A stretch of 20,354 bases of DNA from an uncultured virus (IMG/VR IMGVR_UViG_3300027896_000025) (IMGVR_UViG_3300027896_000025), one strand, 5' to 3'. Shown: positions 3,315 to 18,096, numbered from the stretch's first letter. Numbers and translations are program-made. The notes: generated from the sequence alone by a model not told the origin.

Positions 3315-3892
3315 TTGATAAACTAACTAAAGAACAAGAGGCTAAGATTCCAGAGTACGTTGAAAAGTACCGTGAGATCGGTTTGGACACGACTCCTTGC
3401 GACCACGCTAAGGCTGAGGCGGCGATTAAACGAGCGTACAAGTACCTGAAGTTAAAGGAGCCGACGTTCGTTTGGGCTGACTCTCCACGGGCAGGTGCTA
3501 TCATCGCCGCACGGTTAGCTAAGAGTTCGGATGATATCACTACTGAAGATTTACGTGCTCAAGCCGGTTCGGCAAACTTCGGATCGTTTGAGGCGTATTG
3601 GGTTGCGTTTTACTCGTACATTGCTCATGAGCTTCCGGTTAAGAAAGACGAGCTGATCGATATCGTTGAAGAGATTGTTAAGAACTGCGGAGTGTACTGG
3701 ACTTTTGAAAACGTGGTTGTGATGACTGAGAAGCCAGTAGCAGTTCATTTCGATAAGAACGGCCAGTTGGATAACCCGGACGGTTTGGCTTTGGAATACA
3801 AAGACGGAACTGGTATTTTCCGATTTAACGGCGTTCGTTACAAGTCGTTAATCGACATGGAGATCAATAACGCATGTGTGGACAAAAAGTAA
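3311..3892 (+). CDS. DUF6745-like domain protein
   Basis: LTKEQEAKIPEY..KY...AEAAIKRAY...P.FVWADSP N-terminus; CGVYWTFENVVVMTEKP..VHFD..GQLDNPDGLALEYKDG..IFRFNGV C-terminus. Confidence 0.75.
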   Translation: MIDKLTKEQEAKIPEYVEKYREIGLDTTPCDHAKAEAAIKRAYKYLKLKEPTFVWADSPRAGAIIAARLAKSSDDITTEDLRAQAGSANFGSFEAYWVAFYSYIAHELPVKKDELIDIVEEIVKNCGVYWTFENVVVMTEKPVAVHFDKNGQLDNPDGLALEYKDGTGIFRFNGVRYKSLIDMEINNACVDKK

Positions 3893-4020
3893 TTTTTACA
3901 TTCGAATCGTTATTTAAGTGGAAAGATGTGATTTCATATGAATTAGAAAACAACCTTAGTAATGTCGTAGAGATGAATTACTTAAGTAGTTTTGTTTATA
4001 ATGATCTGAAGGAGTTATGA
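3874..4020 (+). CDS. EEL-family micro-ORF 3 (48 aa, ends DLKEL)
   Basis: MCGQKVIFTFESLFKWKDVISYELENNLSNVVEMNYLSSFVYNDLKEL; ATGA overlap downstream. Confidence 0.65.
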   Translation: MCGQKVIFTFESLFKWKDVISYELENNLSNVVEMNYLSSFVYNDLKEL

Positions 4021-4244
4021 AAAAGAAATCTAACTTTAAAAACTGTCAAGCTGTTGTCTGGATTCCAGAATGGTTAAAAAGATTTCCGATTAAGAATCAT
4101 CCTCTGAAGTTTGGTGAAGTAGTGTACTTCTTAGGCGAAATTTCAAATTGTTCCGGACATTGTATCGTTGTTAAATTTAACGGACAAGTAATTCCGATGC
4201 TTCATACGGCAGATTTCAGATTGGCAAAGGAAAACGAACTATGA
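4017..4244 (+). CDS. hypothetical protein (75 aa, ends KENEL)
   Basis: Coupled at both ends; ends in xEL but is longer and compositionally unlike the micro-ORFs. Confidence 0.7.
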   Translation: MKKKSNFKNCQAVVWIPEWLKRFPIKNHPLKFGEVVYFLGEISNCSGHCIVVKFNGQVIPMLHTADFRLAKENEL

Positions 4245-5290
4245 ACATAACTGAGATTAAAAAAACAGTCCCGATTCTTTTGAAATCCAAAGTCGTCCCG
4301 TTCCTTTGGGGATCTCAAGGAGTTGGTAAAACTCAAGTAATGAAACAAATCGCGGCTGATTTAAAACTTGGATTCATTCATCTCCACTTGGCGACGCAGG
4401 AAGTTGGCGATTTAGTTGGATTACTAGTTCACAACGAAGACGGGACAGTCAGGCACGCTAGACCCGAGTGGTTTCCGACCGAAGGCGAAGGGATTGTTTT
4501 TTTGGATGAAGCTAATCGTGCTCATCCGGACGTGTTACAAGCTATGTACTCATTTATTACTGAGGGGACAATTCATAGACATAAACTACCTGAAGGTTGG
4601 TCAATTGTCGCAGCAGGGAATTACCAAAACGAATCGTTTCAAGTGACTGATACTTCTGACTCAGCGTGGTTATCCCGATTCTGTCACCTGGATTTTACCC
4701 CGTCTGTTGAGGAGTTTACGGGTTACGTTGAAGATCAAGGGCTAGACACAATTTCATCGTTCGTTAAAAACCATCCTGAGATGTTAGAAACGAAACCAAA
4801 AGAACGTCCGGTGTTCGAAATGTTAGTCCCGAATCGTCGCGGGTTGTGCGACATGATTGGACGGTTGGAACAGTTTTCGGACCTGGACGATGTGAGATAC
4901 GAAGTGTATTCTGGAATAATTGGAAAGATAGCAGCAGCATCGTATTTATCCTATAAGAAACAAGCGGTTAAACGGTTGTCAGGTAAACAAATCTTGAAGG
5001 ATTTCAGTAAAGTAAAGGCTGAAGTCTTAGAGATTTCGAATCCGAATAACGCACGGTTTGATTTACTAGATTCAGCGGTTGAGGAAATCATGCTTCTGCT
5101 CCCAAAGAAACCGTTGACTGATAAACAGATTGATAACTTCCAAGAGTTCTTGTTGACGATTCCTTTGGAGTTAGGACTAAAAGTTATTAATCGGATTCAT
5201 AAACTCTCATGGCCGCAGAGAAACGTTATCTTGAATGATAAGAAATTCGTAGAGAGATTTAAGAACGTGAAGTTGAAGGAGAGGAAATGA
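4241..5290 (+). CDS. MoxR-like / AAA_5-type AAA+ ATPase
   Basis: Walker A GSQGVGKT, Walker B VFLDE-ANRA, sensor AAGN, arginine finger AWLSRF. Confidence 0.9.
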   Translation: MNITEIKKTVPILLKSKVVPFLWGSQGVGKTQVMKQIAADLKLGFIHLHLATQEVGDLVGLLVHNEDGTVRHARPEWFPTEGEGIVFLDEANRAHPDVLQAMYSFITEGTIHRHKLPEGWSIVAAGNYQNESFQVTDTSDSAWLSRFCHLDFTPSVEEFTGYVEDQGLDTISSFVKNHPEMLETKPKERPVFEMLVPNRRGLCDMIGRLEQFSDLDDVRYEVYSGIIGKIAAASYLSYKKQAVKRLSGKQILKDFSKVKAEVLEISNPNNARFDLLDSAVEEIMLLLPKKPLTDKQIDNFQEFLLTIPLELGLKVINRIHKLSWPQRNVILNDKKFVERFKNVKLKERK

Positions 5291-5439
5291 ATCCTGTAAG
5301 AAAACCTGGGCACTTTATTAGTGATCAATTTGATGATCAAATTACCGAAGGACTTGGAATGAAATTAGCTGAGGAAATGAATTATGAAACTTTACATTGG
5401 GATTTAGAATATCAATTAAATTGTATTGAGGAAGTATGA
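5287..5439 (+). CDS. EEL-family micro-ORF 4 (50 aa, ends CIEEV)
   Basis: MNPVRKPGHFISDQFDDQITEGLGMKLAEEMNYETLHWDLEYQLNCIEEV; ATGA overlaps at both ends. Confidence 0.75.
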   Translation: MNPVRKPGHFISDQFDDQITEGLGMKLAEEMNYETLHWDLEYQLNCIEEV

Positions 5440-5597
5440 ATATTCGAATCAATCCTGATTTTGGAATTTACGGTTGGAGCGATCAACAAATTGGTAACAT
5501 GCCTTTTTTCAATCAGTTATTTGATAAATTCTTTGAACTTGATAGCCCAAGGATGTTACTTCAAGATCAATTTCGAACAGATGAGGAAATTCTGTGA
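5436..5597 (+). CDS. EEL-family micro-ORF 5 (53 aa, ends DEEIL)
   Basis: MNIRINPDFGIYGWSDQQIG...QDQFRTDEEIL; ATGA and GTGA overlaps. Confidence 0.7.
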   Translation: MNIRINPDFGIYGWSDQQIGNMPFFNQLFDKFFELDSPRMLLQDQFRTDEEIL

Positions 5598-6721
5598 ACA
5601 CGATCGAAACAACAATCAAATCGCTTCTCGATCACAAACCGTTTTACGCTCATTTCTTCTTGCAATGTAGAATTATTTACGACATGCCCGGAGTTCCGAC
5701 CGCAGCAGCTTCGATGACTCAATCAGGCCCGATCCTGATCTTTAACCGTGAGTTCTTAAAGGATCAACCGATTAGTAAAGTCGAAGGAGTAATTGAGCAT
5801 GAAATACTACACATCATGTTTGAGCACACTTCCCACATGAAACGGAAAGAGTTGAATCCAAAGATCAGGAACATCGCAATGGATTGCTCGATCAACCAGT
5901 ACATCCAAGATCTCCCAGACGGTTGTATTCGATTAGATGAACTTAATAAACAGTTGAAACTAAAGTTAGCACCGGAAGAGACTTGGGAGTACTACCATTA
6001 CAAACTCATGGAAAAAGCTGAAGAACTAAAATCTCAGCAGGATTTTGACGTTCATGGAGTTGATACCGGTGAAGGAGATGAGAAAGATGGAAACGGTAAA
6101 GCTGGTAAAGAAATCTCAGCCGAAACTCTTATAGGAATCATCGACAAAGCAGTTACGGATTCGGCTGGAAATCTTCCCAGTGTTGTCCAAAAGATTTGGG
6201 GGACAATGCGACGGGATTCTGTCATTCCTTGGAAGCAAGTTTTGGCGAACTTCATCTCATCCGCTATTAGCAACTCCACGCTCGCAACTAGAAAACGTCC
6301 TAACCGTAGATTTGGATTAGATCAACCAGGACGGAAAAAGAAACGGGAGTTGACGCTAGGAGTTTGCGTTGATTCATCCGGTTCAATCTCTGACGAACAG
6401 TTTCAAATGTTCTTGAATGAAATTACTAGGATAACTCCGAATTGTCGAACAACGTACGTTATCGACGCCGACTGTCAAGTCAACGGAGTTCAGACTTTAG
6501 ACAAGTACAAAAAGTTGAAATGGGAAAGAAAAGGTTGTGGCGGAACGGCGTATCAACCGGCGATCGATGAATGTGTAAAGTTGCGATGTGACGCTGTAGT
6601 GTACTTCGGCGACATGGATTCGGCGGATGAACCAAAGAATCCTGGAGTTCCATTCCTTTGGATTGTTACTGGAGAACAACAACCGCCTGGGAAGTTTGGT
6701 AAAGTGGTGAGGTTGAAATGA
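5594..6721 (+). CDS. DUF2201-type putative metallopeptidase + vWA domain protein
   Basis: HExxH (HEILH), NIAMDCSIN; MIDAS DSSGS, GGT, YFGD; follows the AAA+ ATPase as is usual for this pair. Confidence 0.88.
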   Translation: MNTIETTIKSLLDHKPFYAHFFLQCRIIYDMPGVPTAAASMTQSGPILIFNREFLKDQPISKVEGVIEHEILHIMFEHTSHMKRKELNPKIRNIAMDCSINQYIQDLPDGCIRLDELNKQLKLKLAPEETWEYYHYKLMEKAEELKSQQDFDVHGVDTGEGDEKDGNGKAGKEISAETLIGIIDKAVTDSAGNLPSVVQKIWGTMRRDSVIPWKQVLANFISSAISNSTLATRKRPNRRFGLDQPGRKKKRELTLGVCVDSSGSISDEQFQMFLNEITRITPNCRTTYVIDADCQVNGVQTLDKYKKLKWERKGCGGTAYQPAIDECVKLRCDAVVYFGDMDSADEPKNPGVPFLWIVTGEQQPPGKFGKVVRLK

Positions 6722-6861
6722 TTCTAATGGAGATGATAATACATCATTTTAAATTGAAACATATGCCAGTTTCCTTTCATGAAGACTTTAATCATAATAT
6801 CTGGATGAAATACCAACTTCAAAGAAATTTAGAAAGTCAGTTACTTTGGGAAGAACTATGA
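6718..6861 (+). CDS. EEL-family micro-ORF 6 (47 aa, ends LLWEEL)
   Basis: MILMEMIIHHFKLKH...KYQLQRNLESQLLWEEL; ATGA overlaps. Confidence 0.7.
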   Translation: MILMEMIIHHFKLKHMPVSFHEDFNHNIWMKYQLQRNLESQLLWEEL

Positions 6862-7005
6862 AACGAATTGATTTCGACGGATTATTTTTTAATGGACTTA
6901 GTACTCTTTGGGGTAGAAATTCAAACGAACTGTTTATAGATATTTATTATTTGTCAGAATTAGTTGTAAACTTGGATAGAGAAATACTTTGGGACGAATT
7001 ATGAA
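6842..7005 (+). repeat. imperfect 21-bp direct repeat at consecutive micro-ORF ends
   Basis: TACTTTGGGAAGAACTATGAA (6842-6862) vs TACTTTGGGACGAATTATGAA (6985-7005), 19/21 identical. Confidence 0.8.
6858..7004 (+). CDS. EEL-family micro-ORF 7 (48 aa, ends ILWDEL)
   Basis: MKRIDFDGLFFNGLSTLWG...VVNLDREILWDEL; ATGA overlaps. Confidence 0.7.
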   Translation: MKRIDFDGLFFNGLSTLWGRNSNELFIDIYYLSELVVNLDREILWDEL

Positions 7006-7183
7006 TTCTGGTGAACAAATCAACTCTCAATTATTTAACGAGATAGAGCCAAGACTGAAAGATTGTATAACTAAAAAACTTTATAGCGATGTAAGATACG
7101 ATCTTAGCGACAAGTTATTTTTATTTCGTGTGTTTGGAATGTTTAGTTCGTTAAGTCATTCATTGAAACAGGAGGAATTATGA
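7001..7183 (+). CDS. EEL-family micro-ORF 8 (60 aa, ends KQEEL)
   Basis: Start at ATG 7001 via ATGA overlap; hydrophobic residue every 4th position. Confidence 0.75.
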   Translation: MNSGEQINSQLFNEIEPRLKDCITKKLYSDVRYDLSDKLFLFRVFGMFSSLSHSLKQEEL

Positions 7184-7230
7184 TAGAGATAGCGGTGTTT
7201 GTTTTACTAGCTTTTTTTATTACAAAGTGA
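7180..7230 (+). CDS. putative 16-aa hydrophobic peptide MIEIAVFVLLAFFITK
   Basis: GGAGG SD, ATGA overlap; links micro-ORF 8 to the protease gene. Confidence 0.4.
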   Translation: MIEIAVFVLLAFFITK

Positions 7231-7934
7231 TGGACGATATGAAGTACCTATCAGTAGTGATGTTTGCCTTAATCTTAACAATCTTCGGAAGCTGCGCCGT
7301 TCCGCATTCTAAAGCCGACGACCGGATTCGAGTCGCGGTGATTGACACGGGAGTTGATTACAGATACATTCCAAAGTCGAAGGTTTGCGGATACTACGAT
7401 CTAACTGGGGAAGGTAAAATTGATCCGACAAAGCACGGAACTTTGGTCTCAGGATTAATCCTTCGAGAATCTCACGACGCTCCAATTTGTTTGGTTTTAG
7501 TAAAATGGTACTCAGCCAAAAACTCCAAGGAACGATTAAAAGATAATGTTATCGCAGCTTTGAAGATCGTTTTACGTCAACACGTTCAGTACTTAAACAT
7601 CTCCCAAGATGGAGGATTTAACAGCCCAGAGGAACGATCTCTCTTACAACAGATTTTGAATCAAGGAGTAGTCGTTGCAGTTTCGGCTGGAAATTACGGT
7701 GAAGATGAATCTATTCAGTGCGACACGTTTCCAGCATGTTACACTTTAAAAGGCAAGTTCTTCGTCGTCGGAGCTACTAACGAAGACGGATTGCGCTGGC
7801 ATCTTAGTAACTACGGTGGACCGATAAAGTCATGGGCACCTGGCGAACATCAATGTTACAAGGGGATCTGTCAGTCGGGAACTTCGTTTTCATCTCCGAA
7901 TTTTTTGGGAAAGTACATTGGAGAAGTTCAATGA
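7227..7934 (+). CDS. subtilisin-like (S8) serine protease, exported / putative lipoprotein
   Basis: Triad VAVIDTG, HGTLVSG, SGTSFSSP; oxyanion SAGN; signal peptide ending FGS-C; start could be 7227, 7230 or 7239. Confidence 0.88.
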   Translation: MMDDMKYLSVVMFALILTIFGSCAVPHSKADDRIRVAVIDTGVDYRYIPKSKVCGYYDLTGEGKIDPTKHGTLVSGLILRESHDAPICLVLVKWYSAKNSKERLKDNVIAALKIVLRQHVQYLNISQDGGFNSPEERSLLQQILNQGVVVAVSAGNYGEDESIQCDTFPACYTLKGKFFVVGATNEDGLRWHLSNYGGPIKSWAPGEHQCYKGICQSGTSFSSPNFLGKYIGEVQ

Positions 7935-8083
7935 ACAGAGTAGTTTGGACAAGTAATAAAGATCCAATCTTTAAAGAATTAGTACATTATAGAAAGGAGT
8001 ATTTGGAAATAAATAGATACATAATAGGTCACGATATAATCTGTTTTTTAGTTGGTGAATACTTACAGACTGAGGAGTTATGA
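7931..8083 (+). CDS. EEL-family micro-ORF 9 (50 aa, MNRVVW...LQTEEL)
   Basis: ATGA overlaps at both ends; start moved to 7931. Confidence 0.75.
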   Translation: MNRVVWTSNKDPIFKELVHYRKEYLEINRYIIGHDIICFLVGEYLQTEEL

Positions 8084-8247
8084 AAGTAGTTTGGAGTTAT
8101 TCAGAAGATCTGTTATTTGATAAGTTATTATTTAAATACAAAGATAAGATGGGGTATTTGAGAGATACAATCGTTGGTTCACTAGAAGGTCAAATTGGAG
8201 ATCTTAGATCTGAAGTACTACGGTTGATATTTAATGAGGAGATATGA
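8080..8247 (+). CDS. EEL-family micro-ORF 10 (55 aa, MKVVW...IFNEEI)
   Basis: Hand-translated; ATGA overlaps; N-terminus resembles micro-ORF 9. Confidence 0.75.
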   Translation: MKVVWSYSEDLLFDKLLFKYKDKMGYLRDTIVGSLEGQIGDLRSEVLRLIFNEEI

Positions 8248-8429
8248 ATCCTGATCAACAAATTCAGAAGTTTTTTGATACAGAACTTTACGATGGGTTA
8301 ATAATTCAGTACGGCGAATCACGATTTGAAGAGATTTATAAAAAGTTTACTAATCAGATGAGAACCGTTAAACAGATTTATTTGACAGAGTTTGAGTTAA
8401 CTGTGGAAATGACTAAGGACGAAGTATGA
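8244..8429 (+). CDS. EEL-family micro-ORF 11 (61 aa, ends TKDEV)
   Basis: ORF track; ATGA overlaps. Confidence 0.75.
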   Translation: MNPDQQIQKFFDTELYDGLIIQYGESRFEEIYKKFTNQMRTVKQIYLTEFELTVEMTKDEV

Positions 8430-8576
8430 AAGAACTGAATACTAAACTTTATCTCTTATTGAAAAATAATACCGGATTTAGATTCAGAGATGTGAATTGG
8501 TTTTCACAACTGCACATTTTGAATTTTCAAATTAAAGATGAATTACACACTGAATTAGCTAAGGACGAAGTATGAA
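8413..8576 (+). repeat. perfect 18-bp direct repeat flanking micro-ORF 12
   Basis: CTAAGGACGAAGTATGAA at 8413-8430 and 8559-8576. Confidence 0.9.
8426..8575 (+). CDS. EEL-family micro-ORF 12 (49 aa, ends AKDEV)
   Basis: MKELNTKLYLLLKNNTGF...LNFQIKDELHTELAKDEV; 43 G+C in 150 nt by hand count. Confidence 0.75.
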   Translation: MKELNTKLYLLLKNNTGFRFRDVNWFSQLHILNFQIKDELHTELAKDEV

Positions 8577-8868
8577 TCTTGAGATTTTTGCTTTGACCTC
8601 AGCAATGTGTTTTTCGAATTACTCAGGACAGACTTGTACTAAAACTACTGAGGCGGCTTTAAAGTACGAAGGAATGTGGAACTACGCGGAACAATTAGGG
8701 AAGTATGCTAAAGAAATTTCAGGCGAAGTTCCAGCTTACATCGCCGCGATGAGCTACGAAGTCGCTAAGGAGAAAAAGATTCGCTTGACAACTCATGGTA
8801 ATATGTGTTACACTGTAGAAGTTAGTAAAGATTCTGGAGTTGCTAAAATAACTTGGAAGATTTGGTAA
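8572..8868 (+). CDS. hypothetical, possibly exported protein (98 aa)
   Basis: Hydrophobic N-terminus; C-terminal alternating strand ending in Trp. Confidence 0.65.
   Translation: MNLEIFALTSAMCFSNYSGQTCTKTTEAALKYEGMWNYAEQLGKYAKEISGEVPAYIAAMSYEVAKEKKIRLTTHGNMCYTVEVSKDSGVAKITWKIW
8785..8814 (+). promoter_or_regulatory. candidate sigma70 promoter embedded in CDS
   Basis: TTGACA (8785-8790), 18 bp, TGn-TACACT (8809-8814). Confidence 0.55.
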
Positions 8869-9191
8869 TGACACAACAGAGATACGACACAGCAGAGTTC
8901 ATGGTTAATAACAAAGAAGAGTTACTGAAAACTCTTGAACCAGATTTATTTCAGACATTGGATTGCCAGAATTGGTTCATAGAAAACTCAATTCGTATCA
9001 CATTTGACGAGCTATTTGAGGATCTAGTACAACATAAAATTACTTGGATGCTAGTTGATCAACTTGGAATTAGTATCGACGAAGCGTATTCAATCGTAAC
9101 TAAGAATTTCATAGCAGATTTATTTGGAGAAGAAGTCCTACAACCTCAGTTTTGGGACAAACGATACAAGGAGACCACATGCAGAGAATGA
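8868..9191 (+). CDS. hypothetical protein
   Basis: TAATG overlap gives start at ATG 8868. Confidence 0.7.
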   Translation: MTQQRYDTAEFMVNNKEELLKTLEPDLFQTLDCQNWFIENSIRITFDELFEDLVQHKITWMLVDQLGISIDEAYSIVTKNFIADLFGEEVLQPQFWDKRYKETTCRE

Positions 9192-9463
9192 GATATTCTA
9201 AACAAGACGACGGAACATTTCTGTCAAAAGATCAGTATCCAACTACTAAAGGGACGTTAGTAGTTCTTCTAATTGGAGATACAAAGTTTGAACTGTGCGA
9301 CGCTGTGACCGGAACGATCGTTGAAACTAAAACGATTGATACACCAAACTCGATTTACTTGCGTAGACTCGCCAAGAACACTCTGAAGAAGTTGATGGTT
9401 GAGTCAGTATTTGAAACTGAAACAAGAGTTAAGAAGTCTTCAGCTACGCCGGTAGTTCTATGA
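9179..9463 (+). CDS. hypothetical protein
   Basis: AAGGAG SD before ATG 9179 (alternative start 9188). Confidence 0.7.
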   Translation: MQRMRYSKQDDGTFLSKDQYPTTKGTLVVLLIGDTKFELCDAVTGTIVETKTIDTPNSIYLRRLAKNTLKKLMVESVFETETRVKKSSATPVVL

Positions 9464-9531
9464 TTTTAATAGCTGAAATAATATTTTTTGGTGGAATTCT
9501 AATCGCCGGGGTGTTGTTACTAAGTGACTGA
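9460..9531 (+). CDS. putative 23-aa membrane peptide MILIAEIIFFGGILIAGVLLLSD
   Basis: ATGA overlap; entirely hydrophobic. Confidence 0.45.
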   Translation: MILIAEIIFFGGILIAGVLLLSD

Positions 9532-9706
9532 TTGGTTCTGCTGTGTAGCGTCAGGGATGATGCTCACAGCCCTCCTTTACGCTGACTCACAGTTACATTC
9601 TGTGTACTTAAAGTTCCTTGAGATGCTATTTTTATCACTCTGGTTATCATCCGCTGATCGATTGTTAAGAAGGTGGAACCGTGGTTCTCGATCCAAATCT
9701 CTTTAA
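9524..9706 (+). CDS. small putative membrane protein
   Basis: Two hydrophobic segments and a basic tail. Confidence 0.5.
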   Translation: MTDWFCCVASGMMLTALLYADSQLHSVYLKFLEMLFLSLWLSSADRLLRRWNRGSRSKSL

Positions 9707-9932
9707 AGCGTCTGTGCCATTCATTAAACTCCTGTACGATAAAGAGATTCAGAAATCTCCACAACACGAAGTAATAACTTCAATTTCGCTAGTAAGTTAC
9801 GTTCCATTAGTCGCCGTAGCTCTTTGGGTGAAGAAGTTGTACGGTGCGACGCCAGAACTTGACGCTAAGATACCAGTACTCCTAGAGTTTTATAAGTACG
9901 ATTCTGTCCTTGACATTTCCGACGATAAGTAG
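9681..9932 (+). CDS. hypothetical protein (83 aa)
   Basis: GTG start after AAGGTGG. Confidence 0.65.
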   Translation: MVLDPNLFKASVPFIKLLYDKEIQKSPQHEVITSISLVSYVPLVAVALWVKKLYGATPELDAKIPVLLEFYKYDSVLDISDDK

Positions 9933-9938
9933 TACACT
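9910..9938 (+). promoter_or_regulatory. sigma70-like promoter, probably giving a leaderless mRNA
   Basis: TTGACA (9910-9915), 17 bp, TACACT (9933-9938); ATG at 9945 sits at the expected +1 and has no SD. Confidence 0.7.
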
Positions 9939-9944
9939 TATTAC

Positions 9945-10112
9945 ATGAAGCTGGGAAAAGTAGTCTGGGATCATAATAATGAAATTTTTTTCCATCGTCT
10001 TGATGATGACTTAAAATTAGAGGAATCTTATTTATTTCTTGAAAGATTCACAGATATCCAAAGTGAAAATTTATTTGTTATTCTTAAGGAAGAAATGGAA
10101 TTTCTAGAATGA
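9945..10112 (+). CDS. EEL-family-related micro-ORF 13 (55 aa, MKLGKVVW...KEEMEFLE)
   Basis: Shares VVW N-terminus with micro-ORFs 9/10; terminal motif diverged; ATGA overlap. Confidence 0.7.
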   Translation: MKLGKVVWDHNNEIFFHRLDDDLKLEESYLFLERFTDIQSENLFVILKEEMEFLE

Positions 10113-10273
10113 AGCCGGGGAAACAAATTCCTCTATTAATTAGTATAGTCAATAATAGTTTAGAACCTGCTTATAATGAGGGAAGATATTATTGGGAAAA
10201 AATTCAGAGACAACTCATTATGAGTGATGAAATGATAGCGCATGTATTAGATTTTATTGGGTACGAGTTATGA
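10109..10273 (+). CDS. EEL-family micro-ORF 14 (54 aa, MKPGKQI...IGYEL)
   Basis: Hand-translated; ATGA overlaps at both ends. Confidence 0.7.
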   Translation: MKPGKQIPLLISIVNNSLEPAYNEGRYYWEKIQRQLIMSDEMIAHVLDFIGYEL

Positions 10274-10485
10274 ACGAGTACATCTGCGAATATTGCGGAA
10301 ACGAATTTAAACACACCGGGTACTACAAATCCGAAGTTCGCTGTCCTAAATGTAATGATTCTCACGTTAAGCCAAAGAAACAGTACGAGAAACTTGATCA
10401 GTACGCTGATCAGAAGAAGCCCGACGCTTACATCTCACTTGAGGAAGAATTCCAACGATTAACAAAAAGGAACAAAGAAGAATGA
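10270..10485 (+). CDS. zinc-ribbon protein (FmdB-like)
   Basis: YICEYCGNEF...VRCPKC. Confidence 0.7.
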   Translation: MNEYICEYCGNEFKHTGYYKSEVRCPKCNDSHVKPKKQYEKLDQYADQKKPDAYISLEEEFQRLTKRNKEE

Positions 10486-10703
10486 TGAAGAAATTTTGTT
10501 ACTGGTTTGTTAGGTTGTTGAACGACGGCGTCCCTGGACGTAAAGAAACTTGGGAATCAGTCGATCTTAGAAAAAATGGTGCGAAAATTACCCAAGTAAT
10601 GGGCTGGTACGCGACTGGGATGGAAATTGAAGAAATCGCCGAAATGAACGAATGCACCAGAGAACGGATCAGACAGATGTTGATCAAAGGATGCAGGAAA
10701 TGA
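10482..10703 (+). CDS. small sigma70 region-4-like HTH protein
   Basis: GMEIEEIAEMNECTRERIRQM matches the sigma region 4.2 pattern (EEI...TRERIRQ). Confidence 0.75.
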   Translation: MMKKFCYWFVRLLNDGVPGRKETWESVDLRKNGAKITQVMGWYATGMEIEEIAEMNECTRERIRQMLIKGCRK

Positions 10704-10855
10704 AACTTGCAGAGAAAGCGATAGAAGAATTGATTTACCAATGTAGTATTCTGATATTTTTAAATGATAATCCCAATTTAAATTTACCACAATCTAGAAT
10801 TAATGTTATCACTCGTATTAGAAATCTAATAACAAAAGGGTATTCCGATGTCTAG
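10700..10855 (+). CDS. hypothetical protein (51 aa)
   Basis: ATGA overlap; AT-rich like the adjacent HNH gene. Confidence 0.55.
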   Translation: MKLAEKAIEELIYQCSILIFLNDNPNLNLPQSRINVITRIRNLITKGYSDV

Positions 10856-11489
10856 ACAACTTTCAAAATACAAAACACATTCTAGAAAAAGAAATGGAGA
10901 GATTTCATATTTCCAAAGACTAGAAGGAAAAATTGAAATTGGCCAGATCTTTGATCAGTTAACAGTAATTGAAAAACTTGGTCATGAAAAGAAACAAAGA
11001 ACTACTATTTGGAAATGTCAATGTAATTGTGGAAATATAATTAAGATTCCATCAAGAGTATTGAGATTAAAAACAAGACATCGTAGCTGTGGTTGTCACA
11101 AAGGTAAAAATAATTTTTTCTCTTACTTAAATTGGATCAAATTAAATTACCAAAATAGCGCAAAAAAGCGACAATTAGTGTATACTTTAACAGATAAGGA
11201 ACTCCAATATTTAATAAAATCAAATTGTTATTATTGTGGCTCGAAACCTTCCAACCATATTCAAAATCGAAATCAGAAAAACGACGCTGGTCTTGACTAT
11301 AACGGGATCGATCGATTAAATAATTCAATGGGATATACTAATAATAACTGTGTTCCTTGTTGTAAAGAATGTAATTTTGCCAAATGGAATAAAACTGAAG
11401 AGGATTTTAAAGATTGGATAGATCGTTTAGTTAATTATCAGTTACAGATTTATCCTGAAAAATATCTTGGAGAATCAAATGAAGACTAG
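10848..11489 (+). CDS. HNH endonuclease (putative homing endonuclease), same subfamily as 2028-2588
   Basis: WKCQCNCG...SCGC, CYYCG, NGIDRLNNSMGY..NNCVPCCKECN. Confidence 0.85.
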   Translation: MSRQLSKYKTHSRKRNGEISYFQRLEGKIEIGQIFDQLTVIEKLGHEKKQRTTIWKCQCNCGNIIKIPSRVLRLKTRHRSCGCHKGKNNFFSYLNWIKLNYQNSAKKRQLVYTLTDKELQYLIKSNCYYCGSKPSNHIQNRNQKNDAGLDYNGIDRLNNSMGYTNNNCVPCCKECNFAKWNKTEEDFKDWIDRLVNYQLQIYPEKYLGESNED

Positions 11490-12612
11490 ACGATTATCTC
11501 ATTCATCAGTATCTCTTTTTTCGCAATGTGGAGAAAAATTCCGTTTACACTACGATGAGGGACTTCGTGAAAAAGTAGGGTCTTCTGCACTTCTTTTCGG
11601 ATCTGCTGTTGATAACACTCTGAATGAGTTACTAAAAGATAAACAACGTGAAGATGTTAAAAGCGTTAGTTATTACCAGAATAAATTTGAGAACAATTGG
11701 CTGATTGGTGAGATTAATAAACAAAAGATTGAAATGCCCGAAACTCTCGACGCGACGTACGCCGACTCCGACATGCAGTTTGATGTACTAAACACTACAG
11801 ATATCTCAAGATTAAAAAACTTCTTAATCAAAAATACAATTGAAACTGAAACTGGTAAAAATGACCGAGAATCTGTTGAAAAAACGTACGATAAAATTGC
11901 TGCGATTAAACGAGCAACAGGTATTGAAAACATGTACCAACCGTCAGCCCGATTCGTGAATCTGGCAAACTGGCTTTCCTTGAACCATAAAGGAAAAGCT
12001 ATGATCGAAACGTACTACAACAAGATTCTTCCCAGAATTACTAAAGTACTGTACGTTCAAGAAGTCGTGAATCTAGATAACGAAGAAGGAGATTCTGTAA
12101 TCGGATACGTGGATTTAGTAGCTGAGATTGACGGAGTTGTTCGGATCTTAGATAATAAAACATCTGCGCGTGAATATGATAAAGATTCCGCCAACATCTC
12201 AGCACAATTAGCAATTTATCGAAATGCGCTTCGCGATAGAGTTGATACTCCTCATGTTGGATTCATCGTGATGCGAAAAGGATTGAAACTCAATAAATCA
12301 AAATGCTGTTCAAAATGCGGAAATGATGGAACTGGGAATCGAGCTAGAACTTGTGACAAAGAAATTCGAGGAGAACGTTGTAAAGGAGAATGGATTGAAA
12401 CTGTTTCCCCAGAAGCGATAATTGAAGATTGCTTTGGAACAATAAATGAGTACTTTGAAACTCAAGTGATTGACAATTATGAGAATGTTCTTCATGCCAT
12501 TCGTAGTGAACAATTTTATAAGAACTGGACAGAATGTGTAAAACCGTACGGTCGTTGTCCGTACTACAATATTTGTCACACTGGTAAAGAAGAGAAACTA
12601 ATTAAAGTATGA
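11479..12612 (+). CDS. PD-(D/E)XK nuclease (AddB/Cas4-like exonuclease)
   Basis: LSHSS..LFSQC, GYVDLV...ILDNKTS, QLAIY, C-terminal C......CPY..IC; GGAG SD before ATG 11479. Confidence 0.88.
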   Translation: MKTRRLSHSSVSLFSQCGEKFRLHYDEGLREKVGSSALLFGSAVDNTLNELLKDKQREDVKSVSYYQNKFENNWLIGEINKQKIEMPETLDATYADSDMQFDVLNTTDISRLKNFLIKNTIETETGKNDRESVEKTYDKIAAIKRATGIENMYQPSARFVNLANWLSLNHKGKAMIETYYNKILPRITKVLYVQEVVNLDNEEGDSVIGYVDLVAEIDGVVRILDNKTSAREYDKDSANISAQLAIYRNALRDRVDTPHVGFIVMRKGLKLNKSKCCSKCGNDGTGNRARTCDKEIRGERCKGEWIETVSPEAIIEDCFGTINEYFETQVIDNYENVLHAIRSEQFYKNWTECVKPYGRCPYYNICHTGKEEKLIKV

Positions 12613-12794
12613 AACTGGCAACTAATAATCCTCTCATGAGATTTTTCTGGAATTTAGTTACTCCGATAAATAACTTTGCATTTGATTTTGTTAATCAAGA
12701 CATTCGAATGGATTTACGTTGGGAATTAAATAAAGCGAATCTGTCTGAAACTTACATGAGAGTTAAAGAAATGTTACGCGAGGAAGAATTGTGA
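12609..12794 (+). CDS. EEL-family micro-ORF 15 (61 aa, ends REEEL)
   Basis: ATGA/GTGA overlaps; V-NQD-I-RMD-L-RWE-L tetrad. Confidence 0.75.
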   Translation: MKLATNNPLMRFFWNLVTPINNFAFDFVNQDIRMDLRWELNKANLSETYMRVKEMLREEEL

Positions 12795-12979
12795 ACGATT
12801 TAATCTTCCTTTACATCATTGGATTTGCGATTTCATTGAGTATTTCATCATTCTCAATCCAAGGGTTGAAAGATTGGATTTCCTCAATTCTAATGTGTTT
12901 GTTCTGGCCGATTTGGACAATTTTCGTGATCAGTACGATTTTTCTTGCTATTTTAGTACAAATGTGGGAGAATAGATAG
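12791..12979 (+). CDS. small membrane protein
   Basis: Two hydrophobic helices, FWP motif. Confidence 0.7.
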   Translation: MNDLIFLYIIGFAISLSISSFSIQGLKDWISSILMCLFWPIWTIFVISTIFLAILVQMWENR

Positions 12980-15050: not shown

Positions 15051-15183
15051 ACTGTTTTTCCATTGTTTATTCCATCTTCATCGAAGCTTCATCGCTTCTG
15101 ATTCCGAAGGACCATTTTATATGGCTTGCGACGATTGTGACAGAACACCTTGGTCAAGAGAAAGTTATAGGCTTTACCGATGA
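15031..15183 (+). CDS. small Cys/His protein (50 aa, MLRARIKLFFHCLFHLH...CDDC...)
   Basis: AAGGAG SD; ATGA overlap with 15180; not in ORF track. Confidence 0.6.
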   Translation: MLRARIKLFFHCLFHLHRSFIASDSEGPFYMACDDCDRTPWSRESYRLYR

Positions 15184-17589: not shown

Positions 17590-18096
17590 ATGTCTAAGAC
17601 TTTTACCATTACTTCCAAAACTCATGGATTGTTCAATGTTATTGTTGACGATGAGGATTTTGAACGAGTAATGAAATACAATTGGTCAATCTCAAAAAAT
17701 GGTAATTATTTTAGAGCTGAAACTAGAACAAGTGAAAATAAATTAATGCGGCTTCATCGATTTATTCTGGGATTAAAACAAGATGATCGAAGAGAAATTG
17801 ATCATAAAAATCGTAATCCAATGGATAACAGAAAAGAAAATCTAAGAATCGCGACTAGACAACAAAATGCTCGAAATATGAAATGTAAAGTTCACCCAAA
17901 TAAAACAGGATTCATTGGAGTTTATAGAAATAACGGTAAAGGAAAATATCGAGCTTGTATCTCGATTGATGATAAAACATTTCATATTCCAGGAAATTAT
18001 AATACTGCTAAAGAAGCAGCTTTTGCTAGGGATCGCTATGCCTTAAGAATTGCTGGCGAATTTGCTGTACTAAATTTTGAGGATAAAGATGTTTAG
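17590..18096 (+). CDS. HNH-AP2 homing endonuclease
   Basis: IVDDED, LHRFI, IDHKNRNPMDNRKENLR, AP2 domain TGFIGV...YRACI...AKEAAFARD...GEFAVLNF. Confidence 0.9.
   Translation: MSKTFTITSKTHGLFNVIVDDEDFERVMKYNWSISKNGNYFRAETRTSENKLMRLHRFILGLKQDDRREIDHKNRNPMDNRKENLRIATRQQNARNMKCKVHPNKTGFIGVYRNNGKGKYRACISIDDKTFHIPGNYNTAKEAAFARDRYALRIAGEFAVLNFEDKDV

Follow-up and report, generated by a model that had tools for sequence, protein, structure and literature searches.

Within a 20,354-nucleotide (nt) stretch of DNA from an uncultured virus (IMG/VR IMGVR_UViG_3300027896_000025), hereafter the window, about 20 small genes that are known so far only from this phage are interspersed among known enzymes. They lie between positions 3874 and 12794 (the range considered here), and 14 peptides of at most 65 amino acids (aa) share a weak but real tendency to carry hydrophobic residues exactly four positions apart. 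This tendency takes the form of a single-file i, i+4, i+8 ridge, depleted at i+2 and i+3. The period-4 signature is real but weak, extreme in one protein only, the 60-aa product of the gene at 7001-7183, and defines no family yet. As a whole, we read the region as a series of coupled ORFan micro-genes with a weak period-4 ridge at the protein level, a predicted helical hairpin in the 7001-7183 product and limited common descent, a reading to which we give a probability of roughly one half. Genes are named below by their first position.

A weak period-4 signal across the set

Because shuffled sequences ignore real protein structure, a natural background was used, made up of the open reading frames (ORFs) found by one crude caller in 800 kb of four unrelated phages (1,283 ORFs, 237,049 aa). 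The 20 small in-range proteins have a mean period-4 power of 1.85 and a median of 1.44, versus 1.09 and 0.75 in the background, with Mann-Whitney U p-values of 0.0018 for the residue set ILVMF, 0.012 for ILVMFWYC and 0.008 for the Kyte-Doolittle scale. The excess persists without 7001 (p=0.005), with 6 or 10 residues cut off at either end (p=0.008-0.03), and when an identical ORF caller is used on both sides (p=1e-4). Small ORFs of the window that lie out of range show no such excess (mean 0.73), and the in-range and out-of-range groups differ at p<0.001. Of the two halves of the proteins, the C-terminal one carries the stronger signal (p=0.002, versus 0.049 for the N-terminal one). An origin of the signal in the protein tails only was considered and rejected, N-terminal trimming weakening it about as much as C-terminal trimming.

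The same tendency is seen in the hydrophobic autocorrelation pooled over the 14 peptides, which amounts to -0.085, -0.13, -0.066, +0.107 and -0.031 at lags 1 to 5, and to -0.074, -0.027, +0.053 and -0.01 at lags 6 to 9. Positive values occur at lags 4 and 8 only, and the background is flat. When sets of 14 were resampled from the 177 background proteins of at most 70 aa, the lag-4 value was reached with P=0.002 and the difference between lags 4 and 3 with P=1e-4; without 7001, these figures become 0.019 and 4e-4. An earlier sequence-only reading of this region, which had described the micro-proteins as degenerate four-residue repeat helices and had proposed a Fourier analysis as a check, is borne out, as regards the period of four, weakly for the set and clearly for its extreme member, 7001, and not for most of the peptides taken singly.

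That reading had also set the pattern apart from a canonical heptad coiled coil, and rightly so, as the autocorrelation is positive at lags 4 and 8 and negative at lags 3 and 7; ordinary amphipathic helices of period 3.6 would not give this picture either. Power at period 3.5 does not rise over the background (p=0.087-0.15), and the pooled peak lies at 3.9-4.0, beyond the range of about 3.5-3.8 of non-canonical coiled coils. Coiled coils (heptad 3.5, hendecad 3.67, pentadecad 3.75) likewise show a regular hydrophobic periodicity along helices, but they differ from the present peptides, with their period of 4.0 and negative correlation at lags 3 and 7. A passage of PMC4786415 places a periodicity of 4.0 outside the range accessible to coiled coils, and for this reason a continuous knobs-into-holes seam would be excluded. 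No published description of a period-4 bias of this kind was found, in a literature search that was not exhaustive on this point. The i±4n ridges of alpha-helices, which Chothia, Levitt and Richardson are said to have described in 1981 for “ridges-into-grooves” packing, are similar in that side chains line up in single file at i, i+4 and i+8, the standard ridge on the helix surface. Such ridges usually involve 3-4 residues at a crossing, however, against six rungs on one helix and 9-12 across the hairpin in the present case.

The pattern had been called a repeat, and in the sense of a duplicated unit this is not supported, as Tandem Repeats Finder reported no array in the micro-genes and codon positions 1 and 3 are without any signal at lag 12. 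When the 14 genes are pooled, the identity between codons four apart reaches z=3.71 at codon position 2, versus -0.09 at the first and 0.36 at the third position; between codons two apart there is a depletion at position 2 (z=-3.74). Since the signal is limited to codon position 2, the pattern is a property of the protein and not a DNA repeat; it was held, or arose, as a hydrophobic/polar pattern. A DNA-level origin, either as a decayed 12-nt slippage or tandem duplication or as a 12-nt nucleic-acid signal, is largely refuted and hardly credible: as such an origin would have it, 5287 (z=2.35) and the ladder of 8868 (z=2.0) show a mild rise in nucleotide identity at lag 12, but in 7001 this identity does not exceed that of codon shuffles (z=-0.3), and the ladder codons are diverse.

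Ladders in single proteins

The micro-genes that bear on this question are the following:

7001-7183, + strand: 60-aa ORFan with the strongest period-4 ladder; predicted helical hairpin
5287-5439, + strand: 50-aa ORFan; six-rung ladder from I11 to M31, then L36, L40 and L44 offset by one
8868-9191, + strand: 107-aa acidic ORFan; run of nine at spacing 4 (I38 to I70); predicted all-helical
7931-8083, + strand: 50 aa; member of a three-member paralogue group
8080-8247, + strand: 55-aa paralogue; 9 of 14 positions in phase (L27, I31, L35, I39, [R43], L47, F51, I55)
9945-10112, + strand: 55-aa paralogue of 8080 (E=2e-4); 10 of 14 positions in phase
6718-6861, + strand: 47-aa micro-gene; last 21 residues like those of the next gene
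6858-7004, + strand: 48-aa micro-gene with the tail NLDREILWDEL
3874-4020, + strand: 48-aa micro-gene; run of four at chance level (p=0.45)
5436-5597, + strand: 53-aa micro-gene between the AAA ATPase and DUF2201 genes
8244-8429, + strand: 61-aa micro-gene
8426-8575, + strand: 49-aa micro-gene; run of four at chance level (p=0.36)
10109-10273, + strand: 54-aa micro-gene; periodicity peak at 3.6, not 4.0 (Kyte-Doolittle, p=0.001)
12609-12794, + strand: 61-aa micro-gene with a period-2 (strand-like) stretch, IRMDLRWEL
12791-12979, + strand: 62 aa, 52% hydrophobic; looks like a membrane protein
7180-7230, + strand: hydrophobic mini-ORF of 16 codons joining 7001 to the S8 peptidase gene

All the residues and runs quoted in the sequence-only reading are found in place in the program translations. 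The ladder of 7001 is as it had been described, with 12 of 13 positions hydrophobic (I7, L11, I15, L19, I23, L27, V31, L35, L39, M47, L51 and L55, the odd one being R43), including an unbroken run of nine from I7 to L39. Among 1,000,000 shuffles with the set ILVMF, the p-value is 4.4e-4 for the run and 2.1e-4 for the phase count, and with other residue sets it goes from 2e-6 to 2e-5 (ILV or ILVM) up to 1.9e-3 (ILVMFWYC). This ladder ranks first of 222 tests (37 small proteins at spacings 2 to 7), with a Bonferroni value of about 0.1 for ILVMF. Its period-4 power of 7.11 is matched by none of the 351 coding-filtered small ORFs of the four unrelated phages, and by three of the 3139 55-aa chunks of their large proteins; its periodicity peaks at 4.00-4.05. 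The 7001 product is a true outlier.

The other ladders fared less well. The six-rung run described for 5287 exists (p=0.0078), but fails correction for 37 peptides, even if this peptide at spacing 4 comes second of the 222 tests and has a Kyte-Doolittle period-4 p-value of 0.002. The runs of four pointed out in 3874, 6718, 8080, 8426 and 12609 are likewise present, each of them at chance level (p=0.36-0.53), and since 201 of 585 small background proteins have runs of at least four at spacing 4, such runs are uninformative. The stretch in 12609 turns out not to be period-4 at all, as its residues alternate and its hydrophobic moment has a maximum of 1.2 at 180 degrees. The run of nine in 8868, for its part, had not been named in that reading.

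Predicted structures

AlphaFold2 folding covered two peptides, 7001 and 8868. The model of 7001, from its single sequence, is a helical hairpin with helices at 3-29 and 35-58 (predicted local distance difference test score, pLDDT, 82.5; predicted template modelling score, pTM, 0.58). Helix 1 carries six rungs (I7 to L27) and helix 2 five (L35, L39, M47, L51 and L55), with V31 in the five-residue loop between them and the ladder still in register on the second helix. The claim that the micro-proteins are helices is thus supported by a predicted fold of fair confidence for 7001, and for this peptide alone. A Foldseek search with the model gave no match at E<=0.001 and generic hairpins only, the best at E=1.2, and no sequence in the PDB matched 7001 at E<=10.

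The predicted architecture is that of a Rop-like hairpin. As in Rop/Rom of ColE1, the 7001 model has about 60 aa and two helices of some 25 residues joined by a short loop, and its superposition on Rop gives TMq 0.73, TMt 0.77 and a root-mean-square deviation of 2.1 over 58 columns. The match to 1rop (E=3.5) is statistically not meaningful, and 7001 differs from Rop in having no sequence relation to it and in its strict spacing of four. Rop is built on heptad a/d layers. Other small antiparallel hairpins to which the model can be likened are Tsi2, SrfA, WXG100/Esx and designed helical bundles.

For 8868, the AlphaFold2 model is all-helical with a lower pLDDT of 64.3, and six rungs lie in a helix at 46-66; Foldseek found no match for it at E<=0.001. 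Residues 54-88 of this protein, the segment ITWMLVDQLGISIDEAYSIV, bear a weak likeness to a helix-turn-helix-like repeat of a designed protein, and the sequence has an E=0.05 match in the PDB to ORF99 of the archaeal virus AFV1 (3djw). The 8868 product has a net charge of -11 and no Pfam match. The ESM Atlas returned no feature matches, its models being weak (pLDDT 0.53 and 0.62) and their neighbours generic helical proteins.

Chance as a possible explanation

A number of observations weigh against our reading. Taken singly, 12 of the 14 peptides are unremarkable. All the p-values are post hoc and optimistic, as both the period and the region had been picked by eye from the same sequences, and the background comes from a crude caller and only four phages. 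The period-4 excess falls to p=0.05 when the seven peptides named in the sequence-only reading are left out, and to 0.13 when the tails are trimmed too. Moreover, 55-aa chunks of the window's large enzymes have a bump at period 3.9 (z=4.08), with a power there of 1.57 versus 1.17 for such chunks of other phages (p=0.0095), so that some of the signal may be a general trait of this phage. On the structural side, the model of 7001 was built from one sequence only; with that of 8868, models cover just two of the peptides; the ESM Atlas model of 7001 is poor (pLDDT 0.53); and most 7001 windows peak on the Eisenberg scale at 180 degrees, not at 90-100 degrees. The 7001 sequence, taken alone, may also be compatible with a strand-like structure.

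Such observations raise the question of whether chance, together with ordinary amphipathic helices, could be all there is to explain, with 7001 and 8868 as tail events in which a common six-rung ladder stays in phase through a loop, and with the excess of the set as a post hoc result. We consider this possible, if rather unlikely. Runs of at least six are common in nature, with 107 in the 237,049 background aa versus 5 in the window's 6,526 aa (p=0.18), and four of these 107 reach nine rungs; for runs of at least eight, the figures are 13 and 2 (p=0.06). The chance level of the runs of four, the Bonferroni value of 7001, the peak of the large enzymes and the lack of a register common to the peptides (Rayleigh p=0.45 for period-4 phases when the N terminus is the origin, and 0.15 when it is the C terminus with the tail trimmed) all speak for chance. 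Against it stand the lag-4-only autocorrelation, which persists without 7001, the difference between the in-range set and the out-of-range small ORFs of the same window, and the absence of any background small protein with the power of 7001. Runs of at least nine, finally, number two in the window and four in the whole background (binomial p=0.01), three of the latter in membrane-like segments. As a separate observation, the chunks with the highest period-4 power in background proteins are segments of low hydrophobicity and give no structural lead.

Gene junctions and the limits of common descent

The micro-genes appear to be translated as a coupled chain. At the end of 23 of 52 genes there is a 4-nt overlap with the next start, and Shine-Dalgarno motifs lie 2-11 nt upstream of the starts, inside the last codons of the upstream gene. 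Within those codons, GAGGA, AGGAG or AGGA reads E-E, K-E or K-D-E, and the overlapped ATGA imposes a final codon NNA, often TTA, GTA or ATA. The likeness among EEL, DEV and EEI tails has this mechanical origin: the Shine-Dalgarno site and the ATGA overlap of the next gene dictate the last residues. Tails ending in [ED][LIV] are found at 14 of the 23 overlapping junctions versus 3 of the 29 others (Fisher p=2e-4), and one of these three apparent exceptions is 7001, whose tail precedes the mini-ORF 7180-7230 with its AGGAGG and ATGA overlap. Translationally coupled gene chains with ATGA or TGATG overlaps are known (PMC6728339, PMC12548453); the present chain is like them in its 4-nt overlaps and in the Shine-Dalgarno sites inside upstream genes, and there is nothing unusual in it. 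The lesson for tightly coupled gene chains is that look-alike tails must not count as evidence of homology, because the ribosome-binding site of the next gene sets the last residues of each protein.

The mini-ORF 7180-7230 is very hydrophobic, and its Shine-Dalgarno site, AGGAGG, is the strongest in the region. It overlaps the stop of 7001 through ATGA and the start of the S8 peptidase gene through TGATG, and could serve as a coupling bridge or else code for a tiny membrane peptide.

The sequence-only reading went as far as to take some 17 micro-proteins for diverged paralogues of one tetrad-repeat helical scaffold with a freely varying surface. Similar lengths (47-62 aa), period-4 statistics common to the peptides, the clustering of the genes on one strand, and a demonstrable paralogue triplet plus a possible pair would all suit this idea, which we nevertheless find improbable. 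In an all-versus-all comparison of 22 in-range proteins (231 pairs) with the last six residues removed, 7931, 8080 and 9945 keep their similarity (z 3.6-5.3) and share M..VVW....F..L...YL..R. The ladder named in 8080 falls in the gapped part of this paralogue alignment, and the invariant hydrophobic columns F13 and L16 are three apart, not four. A further pair, 9945 and 10270 (z 5.0), was discounted as E/K-rich low-complexity sequence.

Between 6718 and 6858 the likeness is confined to the last 21 residues (E=4e-4). The junctions at 6837-6861 and 6980-7004 are nearly identical in DNA (TACTTTGGGA.GAA.TATGA), and for this reason the similarity may reflect a copied junction and not protein homology. 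The two longest ladders, those of 7001 and 8868, give no alignment at all; 10109 peaks at 3.6 and the segment of 12609 has a period of 2. With relatedness in three, possibly five, of the 22 in-range proteins, no shared register, and tails that the ribosome-binding site explains, common ancestry of the whole set is not supported. As judged from the alignments, common descent is demonstrable only for 7931, 8080 and 9945 and, weakly, for 6718 and 6858.

Coding and ORFan status of the micro-genes

The micro-genes are real coding genes. Under a codon model for which nine large genes had served as training set, the annotated frame came out best for 40 of 40 small ORFs, the database gene calls agree in length with the derived products (60, 50, 55, 50 and 55 aa), and ORFs tile 95% of one strand. 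An alternative in which the micro-ORFs are fragments of broken larger genes or chance frames, and the pattern is meaningless, would account for the lack of homologues and for the low codon score of 7001 (0.119 per codon). It is very improbable, however, in view of the frame preference, of the one-strand tiling and of the regular architecture of Shine-Dalgarno sites and ATGA overlaps.

Homologue searches with 7001, 5287 and a profile of 8080 returned only the window's own proteins. For 7001, there was no relative in 5.8 bn clusters nor in 1.84 bn representatives (HMMER over all representatives), and a database search with 5287 returned only 5287 itself. The period-4 peptides have no match in Pfam, PHROGs or NCBIfam, even at E<=10; among the small proteins, weak family matches are limited to 10270 (zinc ribbon), 10482 (sigma-70 region 4-like) and 12791 (phrog_9878, E=0.0073). 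By these searches, all tested peptides are ORFans. The small in-range proteins are also mildly acidic, with a mean net charge of -4.1 per 100 aa versus -1.0 in background small phage ORFs.

Genomic context

The window is a replication/recombination region of an uncultured freshwater phage, and 3874-12794 is part of this early-type region. Its G+C content is about 38%, and all its credible genes are on the + strand, including the following:

4241-5290, + strand: AAA_5-type ATPase
5594-6721, + strand: DUF2201 VWA/metallopeptidase protein
7227-7934, + strand: S8 subtilase (the S8 peptidase)
11467-12612, + strand: PD-(D/E)XK nuclease

Further products of the window comprise proteins with PA14-like and SLT transglycosylase domains, DUF6745, ERF, a DnaB-type primase-helicase, an HNH/AP2 endonuclease and a GT9 glycosyltransferase.

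This phage appears to have no near relative. A megablast of 3800-12800 against 50,697 phage records gave no match, scans of IMG/VR with the DUF2201, primase-helicase and PD-(D/E)XK proteins found no relatives, and the tblastn matches of the primase-helicase, to Bacillus and Vibrio phages, reach only 25-27% identity. One metagenome contig of 15 kb (L001) is 100% identical to the window over 13,798 bases, and the metagenome scan also yielded two distant DUF2201 loci. Of the sequencing runs listed, one DNA run contains this sequence, a freshwater metagenome that is probably its source, and there was no RNA run among them. In L003, a distant relative, the AAA (491-1639) and DUF2201 (1623-2783) genes abut or overlap with no micro-genes between them, whereas the same interval in the window contains 5287 and 5436; this difference points to the micro-genes as additions of this lineage. 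The AAA_5 ATPase and the DUF2201 VWA/metallopeptidase protein form a conserved gene pair (4241-6721 in the window, 491-2783 in L003), which is followed by the S8 subtilase in the window and by a ClpP-like ORF in L003.

Some other features of the window are worth recording. Three HNH-type or AP2-type endonuclease-like genes occur within 20 kb, at 1920-2588, 10848-11489 and 17590-18096; Pfam support (HNH_3, AP2) exists only for the last, and the first two have common Cys-rich C-terminal motifs, seen by eye. The widest apparent hole in the gene chain, 9464-9680 (217 nt), has a terminator-like hairpin at 9486-9511. A promoter-like TTGACA-17-TACACT at 9910-9938 directly precedes 9945, a gene without a Shine-Dalgarno site. 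At 15121-15183 there is a 20-codon mini-ORF with Cys, whose end overlaps, through ATGA, the gene that starts at 15180.

Possible role and significance

Clusters of small ORFan early genes are a common theme in phages, and the present array resembles them in that its genes are short, lineage-restricted, on one strand, interleaved with replication genes and without any family match. The ridge would be the seam along which small helical hairpins or bundles pack. With 100 degrees for each residue, a spacing of four makes the ladder drift by 40 degrees from rung to rung and by about 200 degrees over six rungs, and the ladder would not form one continuous seam; it probably faces the partner helix in some parts, and a second copy or a target protein in others. 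It is because of this 40-degree drift, outside the coiled-coil range, that the ladder more likely supplies both the contact of the hairpin and a second surface. As for function, the micro-proteins, being small and mildly acidic, would most likely bind host or phage proteins stoichiometrically in early infection.

A bolder version, which we think improbable, is that of a fast-diverging array of micro-proteins built on one design, a hairpin with a strict, single-file period-four ridge as its core. If true, the winding of the ridge would force a two-sided burial, with a seam on one side and an interface for self-association or for a host target on the other, and the design would amount to a new small-protein scaffold in which the pattern, and not the sequence, is under selection. 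Much of the viral “dark matter” consists of small phage ORFans, on which sequence searches are uninformative, and a physico-chemical signature that outlasts sequence similarity could help to group such ORFan genes.

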